Assembly (NCBI GenBank): GCA_000004695.1
Contig: CM000151.3
Span: 5,472,001 to 5,536,000 of the forward strand
Reading direction: 5' to 3'
Source of the DNA: Dictyostelium discoideum
Taxonomy: Eukaryota
DNA: 64,000 bases
This document shows, piece after piece, positions 8,424 to 29,703 of this stretch; the stretch's first letter is position 1, and each line of letters opens with the position of its first letter. The notes beneath the pieces were generated by a model that saw only the letters and a list, made by a program, of their open reading frames with translations, did not search any database and was not told the origin of the DNA. Made by a program: the position numbers and the translations under genes.

Positions 8424-9572
8424 TGTTTATGTATGTGTTGAGAAATGTGTGTAAAAAATAAAAAAAAAAATGATTGTTTTTGAAAATTTTCAAAAAAAAA
8501 AAAAAAAAAAAAAAAATTAAAAAATTAAAAAATAAAAAAAAATAAAATAAAATTTTTTTTTTAAAAAAAAATACATTTCGAATTTCTCTATTTGTTCAAA
8601 AGAAGATTTTATTTCAATATAAAAATCAATAAAATATCAAATTGATAAATGGATTAAGGGGTTATAGAAATTTTTATCATTTTGGGTAATTATTTTAGAA
8701 TGTTTCAATAAATTTTTTTTTTTAAAAAAAAATAAAAATAAAAATAAAATAAAAGAAAAAAAAAAATAAAATAAAAAAAATAAAAGAAAAAAAAAAATAA
8801 AATAAAATAAAAGAAAAAAAAAAAAAAAAAAATTTTGTAGATCACAAAAGATTTTTTAAATCTTAATTAAAAAAAAGAAATTCATACCAAAATTTTTAAC
8901 ATTATTTTTATTTTTTTTTTTATTTACTTTTTTTTTTTTTTGTTTTTATTATTTTTTTTTTAAACTTTTTATTTTTTATTTTTTTTTATTTTTAGTATTC
9001 TTTTTTTAATTTGGGTTCATATGCATAATTCAAAAGAAATTTAATGTGTTGAATTTTAGATATATCACAATTACAATAAAATTTTAAAGTTTCCTTTAAA
9101 AGAAGTGTGTGTGGTGTTTGTGGGTTTTTTTTTTTTCTTTTACTATTGTTTATTTTTTTTTTTAAATTTAGGGTTTCAATTTCATTAAAAAAAAAAAAAA
9201 AAAAAAAACCACAACACTCTAAGTTTAAGAAAAAAAAAAAAAAATTATTTATTTATTTTTTATTTTTAAAAAAAAAAAAAAAAAAAAAGAATATTAATAA
9301 CTTTTTTTTTTTTATTATTTTTTTCTTTTATTTTAAAAATTATTCAGTATACAACCAAAAAAAAACAAATAAAATAAAATAAAAAATGTAGGTTTAATAT
9401 CTGTTTTAATCTTAATTTTTTTTTTTTCTAAATAATAAATTTTATTATTTTTTTTAAAATGATCAAGAATAAACTTAAATAAATTGGTTGGAATGAAATT
9501 TTAATTTAATATTTTTAAAACAATAAAATTTTTTTTTTTTATACCATAATAAATATTTTCACACACAACATT

Positions 9573-10952: not shown

Positions 10953-11234
10953 ATATTTAGATTTTTTTTTAAATTAGTGATAACATTTTAAAATAAAAAA
11001 AAAAAAAAAAAATAAAATTAATTATTAATAATAATAATAATAATAATTAATTAATTAAAAAATAGAAAATAAAAATAAAAATATTAAACAATAATAATTC
11101 AATTATATAATTAATTTTGTAATTTTTTTTATTTTATTTTATTTTTTTTTTTTTAAATATTTTTTTTTTTTTTTATTTATTTATTTATTTGTTTTTTTTT
11201 TTTTTTTTTTAAATATATTATTATTATTATTTAT

Positions 11235-16130
<4,896 letters not shown>

Positions 16131-16650
16131 TATATATTTAATATACAGTGAATGAGTATTTTATTTTGAAAAAAAAAAAAAAAAAAAAAAAAAAAAGGTT
16201 TTAAAAAATAAAAAAAAAAGAAATCAATTAAAAAACAAAAAAAAATGAAAATTTTTCAAAAAATTCATTAATATTTTTTTATTTATTTATTTTATAGAAT
16301 AATGTTTTTAAATAAAGATAAAAAAGGTTATTATTTTAAAAAATTGAATTTTTTTTTTTTAAAAAAATGATTATTTTTATTTTTTAATTTTATTTTTTTT
16401 TTATTTTTTTTTTATTAAATTCACTTTTTAATTTTTTTTTTTATAGTTTAAAAGATATTTTAATTTTTTTTTATCCAAAAAAAGAAATTTTTCTTTTTTT
16501 TTTTTTTTTTTTTTTTTTTTTGTTTTTTATTTTTATTTATTTTTTTTAAAAATAAACTATTTAAAGAAAATTATATTTTTCTTTTTTTTTTTTTTTTTTT
16601 TTTTTTATTGTTTCTTTAAAAAAAGTAATAATTAAAAAAAAAAAATTAAA

Positions 16651-17135
16651 ATGGAATTAAATAAAAGTGAAATTAAAATGGCAACAAATATTGAGCCATT
16701 AAAAGAACAAGAAAATGAATTAAATGAAAAATTAAAGAAAACCACAATTAGTAAAACTGGAAAAAATAATAAATTGAAAAAAAATGAAAAGAAATTAAAT
16801 AAAAAATATAAAGGATTAAAATGGAAAAAAACAATTAAAAAGTTTGTAAAAGATTACCCAGATGGTTCAATTCCAGTTGATGATTTAAGAAAAATGGTTA
16901 TCTCTAAACAATTATCAAGAATTGAAAAAGATTTAAAAATCATTTTCAATGAAAAGGTAAAAATAAAAAATAAAAAAAATAAAACTAAATAAAAATTATA
17001 CTAATTATTTAAAATTTTTTTTTTTTTTTTTTTTTTTATTAAACAATTTTTTTATTATAGATTCAAGAACCAACAAAAATGTATGCACTTGTTGGTCATG
17101 AAGTAAAAAGATTACAATTTTTCCCAAAACAATAA
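16651..17135 (+). CDS. Lysine-rich small protein, possibly nucleolar. Two exons: 16651..16956, 17061..17135.
   Basis: Exon 1 ends FNEK|GTAAAAAT. Acceptor is ttattatAG (17059-17060). Exon 2 reads IQEPTKMYALVGHEVKRLQFFPKQ*. Confidence 0.5.
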
Positions 17136-17206
17136 AAAAATAAAAAATAAAAAAACAAACTTTTCAATTCTTAATTTTTTTAAAATATATAGTATCATTA
17201 TTATTA

Positions 17207-17417
<211 letters not shown>

Positions 17418-17641
17418 TTAATTAGTTATTTGATTAATTTTCATTAAGGAAATAAAAAAAATTAATATTTTATTTATGAATTTTAATTTTGAAAATGCAA
17501 GCAATTATTTTGATTTTGAAAATACAAGTATTATTATAATAAAACTTGTATTTTAAAATAAAAAAAAGTAATTATTATTTTTGTTTAGATTTAAAAACAG
17601 ATTTAATGCATTGAATTTAGAATTTTTAATGTTTAAATATA

Positions 17642-17652
17642 GAATCGAACCT
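17642..17652 (-). promoter_or_regulatory. External B-box-like element (aGGTTCGATTC) about 30 bp downstream of the tRNA 3' end.
   Basis: Dictyostelium tRNA genes commonly carry an ex-B box (GGTTCGAATCC-like) downstream. This copy matches 10 of 11 positions. Confidence 0.4.
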
Positions 17653-17683
17653 GTATTTTATTGAAAATTCAATAAAAACCTGT

Positions 17684-17764
17684 TGTTGGCGGCGAGATTC
17701 GAACTCGCGAAGCCGAAGCATAAGAACTTGAGTCTTACCCATTTGACCACTCTGGTACGCCAAC
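17684..17764 (-). tRNA. tRNA-Leu(CAA), class II with a long variable arm.
   Basis: Minus-strand read: GTTGGCG TA CCAGAGTGGTCAAATGGG TAAGA CTCAAGT TCTTA TGCTTCGGCTTC GCGAG TTCGAAT CTCGC CGCCAAC A. The 7-bp acceptor stem pairs perfectly. Anticodon loop is cuCAAgu. T-arm is GCGAG/CTCGC with a TTCGAAT loop. No encoded CCA. Confidence 0.85.
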
Positions 17765-18251
17765 GAAAATATATGGTTTTTTCCCACAGTAATAGCTGTT
17801 TTCGATTCAAAAAAATGATCTTTTTGGGAACATAATCGTTTAAACTAAACCGCATTATCCCCACTTCTTTCAAATGTTATTTTCTTTTATTTTGATCCAG
17901 AAAAAAAAAAAAATTCAAAAAGAAAAAAAAGAAAAGAAAAAGAAAAGAAAAGAAAAGAAATGGGAAAAAAAGAAATAATTATTTTTATTTCTTATTATTT
18001 CTAAAAAAAACTTTGCAAAAGATTTTAAAAAATGAGTTCAGAAACAATAAATAAATAAAAACACAAAAATCAATAAAAAAGATTAATAAAATAATGCTGA
18101 AAAACAATAAAAGTAATAAAATAAATTTAATATAAAATTTAATAAAAGCCAATAAATTAAAATATATATATTTTTAATTTTATTTTGAAATTTCATTTGA
18201 TTTTTGTTCAAATTAAAGTGAATTATTTTTACAATTCATTTGTTATTATTT

Positions 18252-18299
<48 letters not shown>

Positions 18300-19389
18300 T
18301 AAAAAATTGCATTTTATTATTTCTATCATTAAAATTTTATTTCGATTTCAAAGAAATTTATAGTTTTATCTAGAACATAGTCAATACTATTTTCACTTTT
18401 TATTATATTTATTTTTATCTTAATTTAAATGAGATTTAAATTTTATTATTAAAAAAAATCTTTTTTTCAATTTTTTTTTTTAATTTTAGACATATTTTAT
18501 TTTCTTCTTTTTTCTTTGAAATTATATTTAACAAACACATGTTTCAAATAGTAAAATTTTTTCAAATTTTTTTTTTTTTTTTTTATTATTATAATTTATT
18601 TTTTTTATTATTACATTTTATCTTTTTTTTTATTACATTTTTTTTTTTTTTTTTTAAAATATATTATTATTATTATTATTTTATTGTTTCATTTCGAAGA
18701 AACAAATTTTAAAAAAATTTTATTACTTTTTTGTTTTTAAAATAAATTGATGTAATGTTTGTGAATTAATTTTTATAAATATGAATAATTTTTTTTGGGA
18801 AATATTAATTATCAGAGGATCCAAATAATGAAAAAGAAGAGCAAGAATATCTAATAAATAATATTTAAGATGTTGGGGCTTCTAATTATATTAATACAAG
18901 ATCCCATCAAAATATTTATGATAATTTTTATAATTTGATATAAATAATAAAATAAACAATGTGGTAAATAATATTCAAACTACCATTTCATCTTTACCAT
19001 TATCTCTATTATCACCATTATCATCATCATCATCTACATCATTAGCATTATCAACCGTTTCATCTTTACCATATATGTCAAAAAGATTCACCTTTTCGTG
19101 AAGATTATCAGCAGGTGGAGTACCAGAGTGGTTAAAAAGAGCCATCATTACCATGGAATTCAAAGGGTAAAGTTTCAGAGTGGTCAAAAAGAACCATCAT
19201 TACAATGTAAATCCTTTATGAGAGGAAACTGTTTATTCACACAAGATTAAAATAATAAAAAATGGTATTGAACATAAATGATAATTTAGAGTAGGCATAA
19301 TTTTTTTATATATAATCATATACTATTTTATGATTTATAAATCTTACTAACACTTTTAATATTTTAATTTTTTTTTTTTTTTAAATGAA

Positions 19390-19672
19390 AAACACCAGGA
19401 TTGGAATTGAAATTCTAGTTGAAATTGTAAATGAAATTGCAATTTGAATTGTAATTTAAAGTCTCAATTACAATTACAATTTCAATTGAAAGTTTCAATT
19501 ACACTCAAATACAATTTCATTTACAATTTCGACCAGAATTTCACTCCAATCCTGGTGGTTGTCCCATTTTTTTTTGAATGGAATAACGAAATTTTTAGTT
19601 GCTTCTTCTTGAGATATAACTCATTTTATTAATTTTCTTATTAGATATTACAGGTGCCTTTTAAGGTTGTAT

Positions 19673-19730
<58 letters not shown>

Positions 19731-20109
19731 GTTGAGGGTGTAGAGTGTGTTTAGTGACGTAATATATTTGTTGAGGTTTGATGGTAGTGCTACTGTGTGT
19801 AGTGGTGAGTTCCAGTGTTTGCTAAATCTTTCGAGTTGTAGGGAGATGATGTTTTTGAATTTTTTTATTTGTTCGTTGTTGGGTGCTTTTTTTTCTTGTC
19901 TGATTAGTTTGTATATGTTGTTTTTTGTTCTTTCCCAGGCTGCTGTTTGAGTTTTCTTTAGTTCGTGTACTAGTAGTTGTTTTCTTAAGTTTTTGAGTGT
20001 TATTCCTTCGTGGATTTTCTTGTTTCTTCTTCTCCAGATGTTTTCGCAAATAATGGCTATGGCGTTGGCTGTTAATGGAATGTCTAGTCTGTTGAAGATT
20101 TCTATTCCC

Positions 20110-20163
<54 letters not shown>

Positions 20164-20525
20164 TTATTTATAGAAAATACTGAGTGAATTATTGTATTTT
20201 TTGAGATGTTTAGGAAGTTCTATTGCGTGAAGAGGTGAGTTCCATTGTCTGTTAAATTGTAATAGCTTTAGCGAGATTAGTGAGTCTAATTTATTTTGTT
20301 CTTCTGGCCGTTGCTTTGATTTGATTCTTAATGTTTTGTTTATAACCGCTTGTGTCCTGTCCCATGCAGCTCTTTGTGTTTTAATTAGTTCAAGTATGAC
20401 TTGTTGTCTGTGAATTATTATTTCTTTTTCATCGTGAATGAGTTTGTTTCTTTTGTGCCATGTGGTTGTCCCTTTTTTTTTTTTTTTTTTTTTTTGAATT
20501 GGCATGTGGTTGTCCCATTAAAAGA
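19390..20525. mobile_element. Fragments of a tRNA-gene-targeted retroelement (TRE5-like non-LTR). Two diverged ~380 bp modules, each ending ...tggttgtccc + T20-T50, plus a 164 bp palindrome. The interval sits directly upstream of the + strand tRNA.
   Basis: Base composition departs from the surrounding AT-rich DNA (GT-rich on +). Module 1 is 19740-20116 and module 2 is 20165-20475; they share agtggtgagttccagtgtttgctaaatctttcgag / agaggtgagttccattgtctgttaaattgtaatagctttagcgag. The motif tggttgtccc-T(n) recurs three times (19553-19578, 20462-20495, 20505-20525). The element ends about 30-48 bp before the tRNA 5' end, as TRE5 elements do. No RT or ORF2 coding is present; these are remnant modules only. 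Confidence 0.4.
19394..19557. repeat. Imperfect 164 bp palindrome (two ~80 bp arms) at the edge of the retroelement remnant.
   Basis: Left arm: caccaggattggaattgaaattctagttgaaattgtaaatgaaattg... The reverse complement of the right arm, ...caatttcatttacaatttcgaccagaatttcactccaatcctggtg, matches it with a few mismatches. Confidence 0.75.
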
Positions 20526-20550
20526 GCCATCATTACAATGGATTTCAAAG

Positions 20551-20631
20551 GGTAAAGTACCAGAGTGGTCAAATGGGTAAGACTCAAGTTCTTATGCTTC
20601 GGCTTCGCGAGTTCGAATCTCGCCTTTATCA
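20551..20631 (+). tRNA. tRNA-Leu(CAA)-like. The body is identical to the 17684-17764 gene but the acceptor stem differs (GGTAAAG/CTTTATC, with one G-U pair).
   Basis: GGTAAAG TA CCAGAGTGGTCAAATGGG TAAGA CTCAAGT TCTTA TGCTTCGGCTTC GCGAG TTCGAAT CTCGC CTTTATC A. It folds as a cloverleaf. D, anticodon, variable and T arms are identical between the two copies. Confidence 0.6.
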
Positions 20632-20722
20632 ACAGTTTTTAAAGTTTTCACAGTTTGGACTTGTTTTAAAAAAAAAATCTTCCACATATTTTGAATTCAC
20701 TAGAAATTTTTTATAATAATCG

Positions 20723-20759
<37 letters not shown>

Positions 20760-21094
20760 AATTAAATATTACTTTAAATGTATTTTTTAAGTAAATAGAG
20801 AATGAATTAATTTATAATAGATTTCTTTTTAAAAAAAAAAATAAAATTAAATAAAAAAAAAACAATGTTTTCGTTTATGTTTTATTTCGGTTTTTTTAAT
20901 TTATTTTTTATTTTTTTTTCACGAAAATTTTATTTTTTTTTTTTAATTTTTTATTTTTTAAATACAATTTTTTTTTTTAATTTTTTTTTTAAAATTTTTT
21001 TATTTAATTTTTTTTTAAAGAAATAAACTCCTCCTAATCACCATTTATATATATATATTGATATTTATTAATCGTAAAACAATATCATAAATTC

Positions 21095-22702
21095 ATGAGT
21101 GATAGTAGCGAATTTTTAGAAAAACATCAACAAGATATATTAAATCAATTAAATAATCTCAAAGAGAAAATCGAAAATTTAGAAAATAAAATGGAAACCA
21201 TTGAAGATACTCAAGTTCAACAACCAACCGAAGAAATCACACAAATTAAAGATGATATTATTGTAGTCGATGATGCTCAAAAAACAATTGAACAAGAAGA
21301 AATTAAAAAAGAAGAACCTGAAAATGATGAATCATCAGAAGAAATTACTCAACAACAACAACAAGTAGAAGAACAAGAAGAAGTTAAGCAAGAAGAGCCA
21401 GTTGTTGAACAACAACAAAAAGAAGATGAAATTAAACAAGAAGAACCAATTGTTGAAGAACCAATTGTTGAGGAACCAATTGTTGAGCAACAACAAGAAG
21501 AGGAAGTTAAACAAGAAGAACCAATTGTTGAAGAACCAATCGTTGAGGAACCAATTGTTGAACAACAAGTAGAAGAAATTAAACAAGACGAACCAATTGT
21601 TAAAGAACCAATTGTTGAACAACAAGAAGAAAAAGAAGAAGAAGAAGTAAAACAAACACAAGAAGAAACTACAACTGTTACAGAATCAGTTGTGGTCACT
21701 GAAACTGTTATTACTGAAGAAGAGAAAAATGAAACTACTATTACTACTGCTACTACCACTACCACCACTACCGAACAACCAACTATTGAACAACAACAAC
21801 AAGAAGAGGAAGAATCAAGACCAGTTATTGAATCTGAACCAATTGTTGTTGTTGAAGCAACTGAACAACCAACAGTTGAAGAAGAATCCGATGAAGAAGA
21901 TAAAAAAGAAACTAATGAAAATGATAAATCATCATCCAATGATAATAATAATAATAATAACGATAAACAAGAAGAACAAAAAGAACAAACAAATGGTAAA
22001 AATGAAAAAGATGAAGAAGAAGAAAAAGAAAAAGATAATAAAAAAGATAAAGAAGAAGAAGAAGTTGAAAAAGAGGATGAAAATATATTATCACAAGCAG
22101 AATTAGCAAACTTTTATAAACTTGAAGGTAATGAATACTTTAAACATAATATTTACTTTGATGCAATCGAAAGTTATTCAAAAGCCATTTCAATTAAACC
22201 ATCACATCTCTTGTATAGTAATAGATCAATTTCATATTATAAATTTGGATTATTTGCTGAATCACTTCAAGATGCATTGGAATCAATTAAATTGGAAGCT
22301 AATTGGGTTAAAGGTTATCATAGAGCTGGTCAAGCTTTAGAAAAATTAAATCAAAAAGATGAAGCCATCAAATATTATGAAAAAGGTCTTTTAATTGAAC
22401 CAGATCATCAACCAATGAGAGATGCTTTAGATAGTATTTTAAATGTTGGTAAAGAAGATCAAAAAGGTGAAAATACTTCCTCTGATAGTGAATCAGATAG
22501 TGAATCAGATAGTGAAGAAGAAAGTGAATCTGATTCAGAATCTGATTCAGACTCTGACGACTCTGACGATGATGATGATAACACTTCAAATCAAAATAAA
22601 TCTATCGTACCATATGGACCTGTTGCTAAAGTGGCAATTGCAACTTCAATTGTTGGTGCAATTGCTCTTGGTTTCTATCTTATAACTAAATTAAAAAAAT
22701 AA
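21095..22702 (+). CDS. Tail-anchored TPR-repeat protein. It has an acidic EEPIVEEPIVE repeat region, three TPR motifs, a D/S/E acidic tract and a C-terminal transmembrane anchor. The architecture resembles plant-type Tom20 or FKBP8/Tom34.
   Basis: Single 535-aa ORF. TPR region: AELANFYKLEGNEYFKHNIYFDAIESYSKAISIKPSHLLYSNRSISYYKFGLFAESLQDALESIKLEANWVKGYHRAGQALEKLNQKDEAIKYYEKGLLIEP. C-terminus: VAKVAIATSIVGAIALGFYLITKLKK*. Confidence 0.7.
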   Translation: MSDSSEFLEKHQQDILNQLNNLKEKIENLENKMETIEDTQVQQPTEEITQIKDDIIVVDDAQKTIEQEEIKKEEPENDESSEEITQQQQQVEEQEEVKQEEPVVEQQQKEDEIKQEEPIVEEPIVEEPIVEQQQEEEVKQEEPIVEEPIVEEPIVEQQVEEIKQDEPIVKEPIVEQQEEKEEEEVKQTQEETTTVTESVVVTETVITEEEKNETTITTATTTTTTTEQPTIEQQQQEEEESRPVIESEPIVVVEATEQPTVEEESDEEDKKETNENDKSSSNDNNNNNNDKQEEQKEQTNGKNEKDEEEEKEKDNKKDKEEEEVEKEDENILSQAELANFYKLEGNEYFKHNIYFDAIESYSKAISIKPSHLLYSNRSISYYKFGLFAESLQDALESIKLEANWVKGYHRAGQALEKLNQKDEAIKYYEKGLLIEPDHQPMRDALDSILNVGKEDQKGENTSSDSESDSESDSEEESESDSESDSDSDDSDDDDDNTSNQNKSIVPYGPVAKVAIATSIVGAIALGFYLITKLKK

Positions 22703-23059
22703 ATTTTAAAATAAATTTTAAAAAAACTTTTTTTTAAAATAATTAAAATAAAAAAAATAAATAAATAAATAAAAAAATAAAAAAATAAAAAAAATAAATA
22801 AATAAAAAATAATAATAAACTCAATGAGAATATTATTGTTTTTTTTTTTTTATTTCTATAAATGATAGTTTGTTTAATAATAATAATAACAATAATAATA
22901 ATAATAATAATTTTTTTTTTTTTTTTTATAATTTAAATATTAAACTTTTTTATTTATTTTATTACAGTGATAATTATTTGTTTTAAAATCATTATTATTT
23001 TATTTTTTTTTTTTTAAAAAATATTGTAGTTATTTTTTTTATTTATTTTATTTTTTGTT

Positions 23060-27588
<4,529 letters not shown>

Positions 27589-28199
27589 TAATTAAATTTT
27601 AAAAAAATTTATTATAAAAATAAAATTTTTTAAAAAAAAAAAAAATAAATAATATATATAAAAATACAAATTGTTTTTTCTTGTTTTTGTTTTTGTTTTT
27701 GTTTTAGTTTTTGTTTTTTAGTTTTAGTTTTTGTTTTATCTATTAAACATTAAAAATAAAACTAATTCGCTTTTTTTTTTTTTTTTTTTTGTTTTTTTTA
27801 ATTATGATAATTGTGACCAAAAAAAAAAAAAAAGAAAAAAAATTTAAAAAAAAAAATTTAAAAAAAATAAAATTAAAAAAAAAAAGCACATATGTAATGG
27901 ATTGATCATCACCACTTACCAAAGTATTTTATGGTGGTTAAAATTTTTTTTTTTTTTAAATCTTTTTTACTATTTATACATTTTGTTTATTAAAATCTTT
28001 AAAAAATTAATTTAATTTAAAATTAAATAAAAAAAATAAGAAATAAAAAAAAAACAAAAAATAATAATCTTCACAATTGTTTTTATAATTATTAACCATT
28101 CATTTTTTTTTTTTTTTTTTATAACTCAAAATAACACCAATTTTGATAATAATTAATAATAAATATTTTTTAAACAAAAAAAAAAAACAAAAAAAAAAA

Positions 28200-28237
<38 letters not shown>

Positions 28238-29703
28238 TTTTTTTGGTCAAAATTTTTATTTAATTATTAACCTTTCATTTTTGTAATTATGAGGAACAAC
28301 TAGAAGGAATATATATTTAAAATTTTTTTATTGGGTTCCTAAAATTGAATTTAAACCAAATAAACCCAATAATTGACTTTTCCTTAATTTTCCAACAAAA
28401 AGGTTTGATTTTGTAATTTCTAAATCCGCTATAATTTTATTACTTTTTGAAATATTTTTTATAAACTGTAAACTAGATTTATAATGTTTTAAAAAGAAAA
28501 ATTGTTTTTTTTTAATTTCAGTTACTATTTGATTTTCAATTTTATTACTAATTGTTTTAACAAATTTTAATTGAAATAATATTAAAAGTATATCAGCTTG
28601 AATTGTTAAATAATATCAATAATCCTCTGGTTCATTGTTAATTACTTCCTGCTCTTTGCTTTTATGCTGATCTTAAATTGTGAAAAGGAAAAAAGAAAAA
28701 TTAATTAGCAAAAAAGACTTTACTTTCACTATTTATTTATATGGTTTTGTTTTCTTTTATATTTAAAAATAAAATTTAGTTTGATCATAAAAAAAAAAAA
28801 AAAAACCATCTGTTATTTTATTTTATTTTTTTATTTTTATAAAAATATTCTGTGTAAAAACGATTAATGTTTAAGGTGGTTAACTTACCCATTAAGATAA
28901 ATAATTAAATAATATTAAAAGATTTTTATATGTTAATGAAAAATAAAAAAGAAAATAAATAATATATAAATAATTTCTACAAAGATTATAATATTAAAAA
29001 GATTGTCAAATACTTTTAGAGTAGTGCAAAAAAAAAAAAATTAATAAAAATAACACAAAAAAAAAAAAAACAAAAAAAAAAAAAAAAAAAATTGATATTA
29101 TAATTTATTTTTATTTATTTATTAATTTATTTTTAGTGGTAGTGGTAATGAGATTAGAAGAAAAGAAGAAGATTAATTTTTAATAATAAAGAAAAAAAAA
29201 TACTAAATTTTTTTTTTTAATATCAAAAACTATCAATTTAACCCAAACAATAAAAAAACTATTTTTAAACAGTTATTTTAACAATTCACTTTCAAATTTA
29301 CACCATTTTTTTTTTTTTTTTTTTTTTTGATTTTTTTTAATTTTTTTTTTTTATTTTTTGCTCAAACTTTTATATTTTGTTCCCTTTGTGAAAATAAAAT
29401 AAAAAATTAAAGAAATATCGAAAAAACGAAAATAATAACAATATTATTATTAATAATAACAATTGTTTATCAACCAATTAAAATGGTCAATAAAATCCAA
29501 AAGACCTCATAGCTTCAATATTTTTTTATTATATCAGAACCATTGTAGTGGAACTTCTCTTTGATCATTTAATTTGTTTTAAGTTACCAAAAGCAAACAA
29601 AAATTGCTTAAATTAAAGTGATTAAAAAAAAAAAAAAAGTTTAAATAAAAAAAAAATGAAATAATAAAAATACTCTTTTTTTTAAACTATTAATTTTTAA
29701 ATT

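Follow-up and report, generated by a model that had tools for sequence, protein, structure and literature searches.

Upstream of a leucine tRNA gene of Dictyostelium discoideum lies a tandem array of at least three decaying units, repeating every 52-54 bp and probably copied at the DNA level from the segment of the tRNA-Leu(CAA) gene between -29 and +23. The array was analysed within a 64,000-nucleotide stretch of contig CM000151.3 (GCA_000004695.1), referred to here as the window, with a G+C content of about 20%. Two clear units stand head to tail at 19114-19208 (+) with a period of 52, and their identity to the gene is 90-93%. A unit consists of tRNA-Leu(CAA) positions 1-23 and, behind them, the 29 nt found immediately upstream of the intact gene (20551-20631); relative to that gene it spans -29 to +23 and thus crosses into it. 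The parts of the array and the stretch that follows it are listed below.

19060-19113, plus strand: decayed oldest unit, 54 nt, about 60% identical and in register, with the junction motif GTCAAAAAGA at 19077
19114-19136, plus strand: copy A, tRNA-Leu positions 1-23 (GGTGGAGTACCAGAGTGGTTAAA), 20/23 identical, A box intact
19137-19165, plus strand: flank copy F1 (29 nt), matching the upstream flank of the gene at 27/29
19166-19188, plus strand: copy B, tRNA-Leu positions 1-23 (GGTAAAGTTTCAGAGTGGTCAAA), 21/23 identical, two changes within the A box
19189-19208, plus strand: partial flank copy F2', whose first 19 nt match at 18/19 before homology ends
19209-19367, no strand: AT-rich stretch of 159 nt between the array and a hairpin element

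The array and its parent gene

Repeat, register and junction are all directly visible in the DNA. The 21-nt flank motif is matched three times with at most 3 mismatches (19136, 19188 and 20521), against 0.00 matches expected from 100 shuffles, and the 23-nt tRNA 5' part is found three times on the plus strand (19114, 19166 and 20551), again with a chance expectation of 0.00. The preliminary description had reported a repeated pattern of tRNA 5' half plus upstream flank, and these counts bear it out. A repeat search of the window pairs 19135-19188 with 20520-20573 (93% over 54 nt) and 19114-19161 with 19166-19213 (81%, spacing 52). Aligned with the gene region, 19114-19208 is similar far above chance: the unit at 19114-19165 matches the gene-derived unit at 47 of 52 positions and the unit at 19166-19207 at 39 of 42, with similarity stopping at 19208. 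Strong homology therefore covers less than the interval 19095-19232 originally proposed.

Directly upstream, the 54 nt at 19060-19113 match the gene-derived unit at 31 of 52 positions, and an in-register global score this high is attained in 0.23% of 4688 control windows. GTYAAAAAGA marks the junction three times, at 19077, 19131 and 19183 (54 and 52 nt apart), and in the longer form GGTYAAAAAGA it is common to all three units; the join of tRNA position +23 to the flank reads CAGAGTGGTYAAAAAGARCCATCATTAC. The units thus run head to tail, in one orientation, with a constant period and the same junction in each, as in a tandem repeat. Tandem Repeats Finder lists no period-52 array for the window. 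Similarity to the gene drops with distance from it, from about 93% through about 90% to about 60%. Of the early estimate of some 2.5 copies of a unit of about 52 bp, the period stands and the count becomes two clear units and one decayed; the proposed composition, 30 bp of flank and about 22 nt of tRNA, is likewise correct in kind, with exact sizes of 29 and 23 nt. Left of 19060, weak local maxima at 18946-18963 and 19033 could equally well be low-complexity coincidence. A separate 19-nt repeat, ACCRTTTCATCTTTACCAT, occurs at 18982-19000 and 19054-19072 (95% identical, spacing 72 nt) inside a D/N-rich orphan ORF, and may be a remnant of an older duplication or a low-complexity coincidence.

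Window positions 11048-29638 are collinear with a second D. discoideum assembly (L001, GCA_054883475.1). The 1801 nt compared at 18900-20700 contain 0 mismatches, the differences being confined to gaps in homopolymer runs, and the array is therefore no assembly artefact. The copy number is the same in this single other assembly compared. No instance of the flank motif occurs in about 185 kb from other Dictyostelium loci, which contain 12 other tRNA genes, and neither it nor the variant tRNA 3' end was found in JGI metagenome contigs. A literature search returned no description of partial tRNA 5' copies in Dictyostelium and no publication printing these sequences.

As the preliminary description held, the source of the copies is the tRNA-Leu(CAA) gene at 20551, namely its 5' part and upstream flank. 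A second gene of the same kind lies nearby in divergent orientation.

20551-20631, plus strand: intact tRNA-Leu(CAA), parent of the copies (ARAGORN; Rfam tRNA 54.4 bits), B box at 20610-20620
20520-20550, plus strand: upstream flank of the intact gene, an A-run and the 29-nt flank copied in the array
17684-17764, minus strand: second tRNA-Leu(CAA), divergent orientation (ARAGORN; Rfam tRNA 56.2 bits)

The two genes are identical over positions 7-74 and differ at four positions per acceptor strand, the stems being GGTAAAG/CTTTATC in the 20551 gene and GTTGGCG/CGCCAAC in the 17684 gene; pairing is preserved in both, with one G-U pair. An external B box stands at 17641-17651 beside the 17684 gene, and the 20551 gene is without one. 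The 20551 gene, with its A/U-rich acceptor stem, has been struck repeatedly by TRE5 elements, which indicates that it is Pol III-active. In the surroundings, a pure (ATT)n microsatellite of about 70 units occupies 17205-17420, between a LYAR-like gene and the first tRNA-Leu gene. The downstream neighbour of the locus encodes a protein with a TPR domain; searched toward the orthologous locus of D. cf. discoideum, the full protein returned mostly low-complexity matches and the domain by itself none.

The copies do not all record the same state of the acceptor strand. In copy A this strand reads GGTGGAG, with G4 and G5 as in the neighbouring gene (GTTGGCG) and G2 and A6 as in the parent (GGTAAAG), and is therefore intermediate between the two full genes. 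Copy B carries the parent's present A4 and A5, and the second flank copy is likewise in the parent's present state. These differences between copies A and B fit units formed at different times.

The AT-rich stretch at 19209-19367 has no match in the roughly 185 kb of other Dictyostelium loci. A reading of it as a decayed tRNA 3' end with trailer was rejected: the two share CCTTTAT...AAC.GTTT, but the alignment score equals the shuffle mean, and an inverted match to the tRNA 3' region (74%, 23 nt) is no better than many chance pairs.

Retroelements between the array and the gene

Mobile DNA on the minus strand makes up most of the 1.3 kb that separate array and gene. At 19571-20502 at least four TRE5-type fragments follow one another in tandem, all with their 5' ends toward the gene and their oligo(A) tails away from it, and the claim that the locus is a tRNA-targeted insertion hotspot is thereby upheld.

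19383-19570, no strand: hairpin or palindromic element, 188 nt, near-perfect, with inverted repeats and T15 on the left
19571-19674, minus strand: TRE5 3' end fragment, the last ~96 nt of a C-module-type 3' end plus A8
19675-20112, minus strand: second TRE fragment, ORF2 3' end (19728-20112) with an A53 tail
20113-20460, minus strand: third TRE5 fragment, 5'-truncated ORF2 3' end with an A49 tail
20459-20516, minus strand: minimal TRE5 insertion, CCAATTC (7 nt) plus A23 at 20473-20502

The segment 19579-19674 matches at 82-85% the 3' ends of TRE5 copies at the loci L002, L003, L006 and L009, which end in ...CCAATTC-A(n). A 14-bp duplication, GTGGTTGTCCCATT, at 19557-19570 and 20506-20519 brackets the TRE5 pieces and places the 5' end of the 19571-19674 fragment at -46, with distances here and below counted from tRNA position +1 = 20551. 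The fragment at 19728-20112 belongs to a different TRE family and is 66-68% identical to the next one. For that next fragment, 20162-20460, identity amounts to 98% with a copy in L002 and to 82-94% with copies in seven other loci, and its relatives all adjoin tRNA genes where a tRNA gene was found. With the minimal insertion subtracted, its 5' end lies at -47, and no duplication surrounds it. The minimal insertion is bracketed by a perfect 14-bp target-site duplication, CATGTGGTTGTCCC (20459/20503), with its 5' end at -49, and is a clean case of extreme 5' truncation. At L005 and L009, TRE5 ORF2-3' fragments like 20162-20460 occur with no ARAGORN tRNA gene within 10 kb; their target was either an intron-containing or otherwise undetected tRNA gene, or no tRNA gene at all.

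TRE5 integrates 47+/-3 bp upstream of tRNA genes in strict orientation, and TRE5-A needs a B box (PMC5391098); TRE5-A target-site duplications measure 10-16 bp (PMC9012585). The directly visible TRE5 5' junctions at this locus (-46, -47 and -49) and the 14-bp duplications at -46 and -49 agree with these published values, and the head-to-tail order of the fragments agrees with TRE-TRE tandems. Since the TRE5 fragments occupy the published positions, the retroelement footprints at this gene are separate from the 52-bp unit.

The hairpin element folds as DNA with -57.3 kcal/mol (z = -12.3). Before the TRE5 insertions, which cut into its right end, it reached to about 31 nt from the tRNA; among the other Dictyostelium loci, about 185 kb in all, it has no relative. 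A foldback element is one candidate identity, a retro-inserted fragment whose A15 tail lies on the minus strand another. The hairpin and its flank were also compared, by description, with a DGLT-A solo LTR (H3R) as a possible source of the flank motif. Such an LTR is about 265 bp long, has TG...CA ends and a short duplication, and lies 13-33 bp upstream of a tRNA gene. A TG (19206)...CA (20537, 13 bp from the tRNA) reading is possible, but it gives a length of about 207 or 384 bp and no 4-6-bp flanking duplication, and on ends and length this assignment appears unlikely.

Origin of the units

The mechanism of duplication is an inference, and the array may once have been contiguous with the gene. 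The founding duplication would have fused the A-run with which the flank begins (AAAAGAGCC...) to tRNA position +23 (...GGTCAAA), the two runs overlapping by about 2 nt, by slippage during replication or by a template switch at A-run microhomology. Each breakpoint falls in an A-run: the tRNA contributes 3 A and the flank 4, at present-day length, and the junction holds 5. This number, set against 3 + 4 in the parental runs, points to an overlap and would leave no room for an inserted poly(A). Two 52-bp direct repeats would then have been in place for unequal sister-chromatid exchange, or slippage, between array and gene, which would add gene-like units on the gene-proximal side. Older units would decay neutrally, and such decay would account for the gradient of identity. 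The 188-nt hairpin element, and then the tandem of TRE5 fragments, would have entered upstream of the intact gene; the copies, now 1.3 kb from their parent, were about 360 bp from it before the TRE5 insertions.

This scheme resembles known microhomology tandem duplications and minisatellites in its head-to-tail order, constant period, shared A-run junction and decay gradient, and differs from minisatellite arrays in that the array lies 1.3 kb from its template with the last unit cut at flank position 19. The same features weigh against a simple local duplication: the array is not contiguous with the gene and ends at flank position 19, whereas the gene-side flank is complete. In addition, 159 nt with no match among the other loci adjoin the array, and the copied flank begins, to within the A-run, exactly where the hairpin element ends, a coincidence that simple slippage does not predict. 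The left end of the 1.3-kb block shows no T-run and no known relative. An earlier first insertion may have separated array and gene, leaving a 19-21-nt duplication, or a target-site deletion may have removed a further unit; target-site deletions accompanying truncated TRE5-A leave distances such as 28 bp (PMC3159450). Alternatively, an ectopic templated copy may have been placed about 360 bp upstream from the outset.

Because the array is cut at flank position 19 and the gene's own flank is complete, 19-21 nt are shared across the 1.3-kb block, much as in an oversize duplication. This bears on a reading of the array as a by-product of TRE activity, in which nicks about 52 bp apart, in the A-run at -30 and the D-loop at +23, were followed by near-abortive reverse transcription that left an oversize duplication, the process being repeated. 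The locus is a proven TRE5 hotspot, and the near-empty insertion found here (7 nt + A23, 14-bp duplication) shows that almost-duplication-only insertions occur. Furthermore, the junction is an A-run, the bottom strand at -30 ends in TTTT and would be a plausible primer for poly(A) RNA, and the 19-21-nt direct repeat (F2'/F3) encloses the whole inserted block. We nevertheless consider this origin unlikely. The junction contains fewer A than the sum of the parental runs, so that no tail is left, and an analogous partial copy in Dictyostelium cf. discoideum, described below, has no adjoining TRE. The poly(A)-toward-gene orientation that the process requires is also contrary to the strict orientation of TRE5 (PMC5391098).

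The preliminary description had interpreted the copies as scars of repeated integration and excision, and had suggested comparing them with TRE5 target-site duplications. What the two share is that both are direct repeats of tRNA-upstream sequence at a TRE5-occupied tRNA gene. Non-LTR retrotransposons are not known to excise. TRE5 target-site duplications bracket an element that ends in oligo(A), whereas the array units abut through AAAAA with neither an element nor a poly(A) tract between them, and the array has at least three copies, unlike those duplications. The unit of 52-54 bp is 3-5 times longer than a target-site duplication of 10-16 bp (PMC9012585), and it extends from -29 to +23, within the gene, while the duplications lie 47+/-3 bp upstream (PMC5391098), outside the TFIIIB-covered region. 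Length, position and bracketing are thus all unlike those of the 52-bp unit, and the retrotransposon-scar reading is not supported. Nor do the copies serve as a marker for how the element chooses its target, as they add nothing new on TRE5 target selection.

For the preferred origin, duplication at the DNA level, a second locus offers a comparison. In Dictyostelium cf. discoideum (L004, GCA_054859205.1, 9027-9441), a tRNA-Gly(UCC) gene at 9352-9422 (-) is accompanied, 333 bp downstream, by a partial copy of 69 nt that covers -19..+50 with 94% identity. One end of this copy is fused at AACYGG microhomology to an inverted copy of adjacent sequence, which looks like a signature of replication template switching. 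A 19-nt inverted repeat encloses the copy; the DNA separating it from the gene contains a 33+33-nt palindrome (9202-9276) and no TRE. Partial copies with their own flank were found at 2 of the 14 tRNA genes in the fetched loci and the window, a small and biased sample. At both loci a palindrome of at least 76 nt separates parent and copy, and none was found at the other 12 genes, an association noticed post hoc.

Replication template switching of the FoSTeS/MMBIR type, near palindromes and at Pol III genes that form fork barriers, is known from yeast and human. The Dictyostelium loci share with it the microhomology junctions, putative in the case of the array, and, at both, a large palindrome between parent and copy, and in L004 also an inverted segment fused to the copy; the mechanism was described in yeast and human, and the comparison here covers two loci. 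A bolder extension, to which we give little credence, is that forks stalling at a palindrome-adjacent Pol III gene repeatedly shed copies of the initiation-complex segment, from the TFIIIB upstream edge to the end of the A box, and so left a fossil series of acceptor strands.

An RNA-mediated copy, in which a read-through or antisense transcript over the flank and first 23 nt was reverse-transcribed and inserted upstream of the gene, is much less probable again. The routes considered were 5' or 3' transduction by a neighbouring TRE and template switching of reverse transcriptase onto the tRNA precursor. Chimeric retrocopies formed by template switching are known for mammalian L1 and provide a precedent. 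At this locus TRE5 elements adjoin the gene, and the TRE5 C-module drives antisense transcription (PMC3159450); the units, however, have no adjoining TRE sequence, poly(A) tail or flanking duplication, and are oriented as the gene is, whereas all TRE fragments at the locus are opposite. In yeast, tRNA start sites lie about 12 bp upstream (PMC5006619), and by analogy most of the 29-nt flank, about 17 nt or more, would fall outside the pre-tRNA, so that an RNA template switch onto the tRNA transcript would not fit. Of the template switching originally suggested, only the DNA-replication sense thus survives. Retrocopies, SINEs and chimeric retrogenes contain transcribed sequence only, with an A-rich tail and a flanking duplication, and the array has none of these properties: it includes 29 nt of upstream flank, mostly untranscribed if yeast is a guide (PMC5006619), and no tail beyond the 5-A junction.

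Function, coding capacity and meaning

The copies are inert. A B box scan found none between 17707 and 20608, with matches only in the two full genes and at 17641-17651, an absence that can be read directly from the DNA. ARAGORN calls only the two full genes as tRNAs and not the copies, Rfam reports nothing more even at E<=10, and neither copy A nor copy B has a TRE at 47 bp upstream. Having an A box without a B box, the copies are neither tRNA genes nor TRE5 targets. Like tRNA gene fragments or pseudogenes beside intact genes, they are partial tRNA sequences near the parent gene, with similarity to a tRNA, an incomplete cloverleaf and no B box. Partial tRNA copies left by prokaryotic integrases repeat the gene's 3' part and enclose an island, whereas here the 5' part and untranscribed flank are copied, in tandem, with no element bracketed.

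One annotated reading frame overlaps the array.

18975-19145, minus strand: orphan ORF DDB_G0275387, 56 aa, annotated in AX4, with its first 9 codons antisense of F1 and copy A

That the array functions as coding sequence of DDB_G0275387, or as a decoy or insulator for Pol III factors through its A boxes, is the least credible alternative: a minus-strand ORF of 56-70 aa over 18975-19187 is annotated in AX4 and the A box of copy A is intact, but the ORF is an orphan with self and low-complexity D/N-rich matches only among 1.84 billion representatives, its cluster contains no other sequence, a period of 52 nt disrupts the frame and the ORF spans only part of the array, the copies have no B box, copy B carries two changes inside its A box, and TRE5, whose insertions report TFIIIC/TFIIIB occupancy, is missing from the position 47 bp upstream of the copies. 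The idea of a coding repeat was likewise rejected, as 52 is not a multiple of 3, the minus-strand frame contains stops and the ORF is an orphan. In the second assembly, the TRE5 ORF2 fragment gave rise to the prediction ACTFIT_003905 (123 aa, L001; window 20171-20694, minus strand), which extends through the tRNA gene in antisense. Both DDB_G0275387 and ACTFIT_003905 are read from the antisense of tRNA- or TRE-derived DNA, and are therefore probably annotation artefacts.

The array is of a kind already known: it behaves like a small minisatellite, probably seeded by microhomology duplication, and in content it consists of tRNA gene fragments. At face value it is another small functionless tandem duplication in a genome full of such. 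It also provides a worked example in which real TRE5 footprints (14-bp duplications, -46, -49) can be told from look-alike repeats at the same tRNA gene, and a warning for annotation, as two predicted protein genes come from the antisense of tRNA- or TRE-derived DNA. The copies keep older states of the tRNA acceptor strand and, together with the L004 example, give a hint that palindrome-adjacent tRNA genes shed partial copies. Should the repeated shedding at stalled forks prove true, the series from GTTGGCG-like through GGTGGAG to GGTAAAG would represent step-wise compensatory, AT-biased evolution of the acceptor stem in a gene that is still active.
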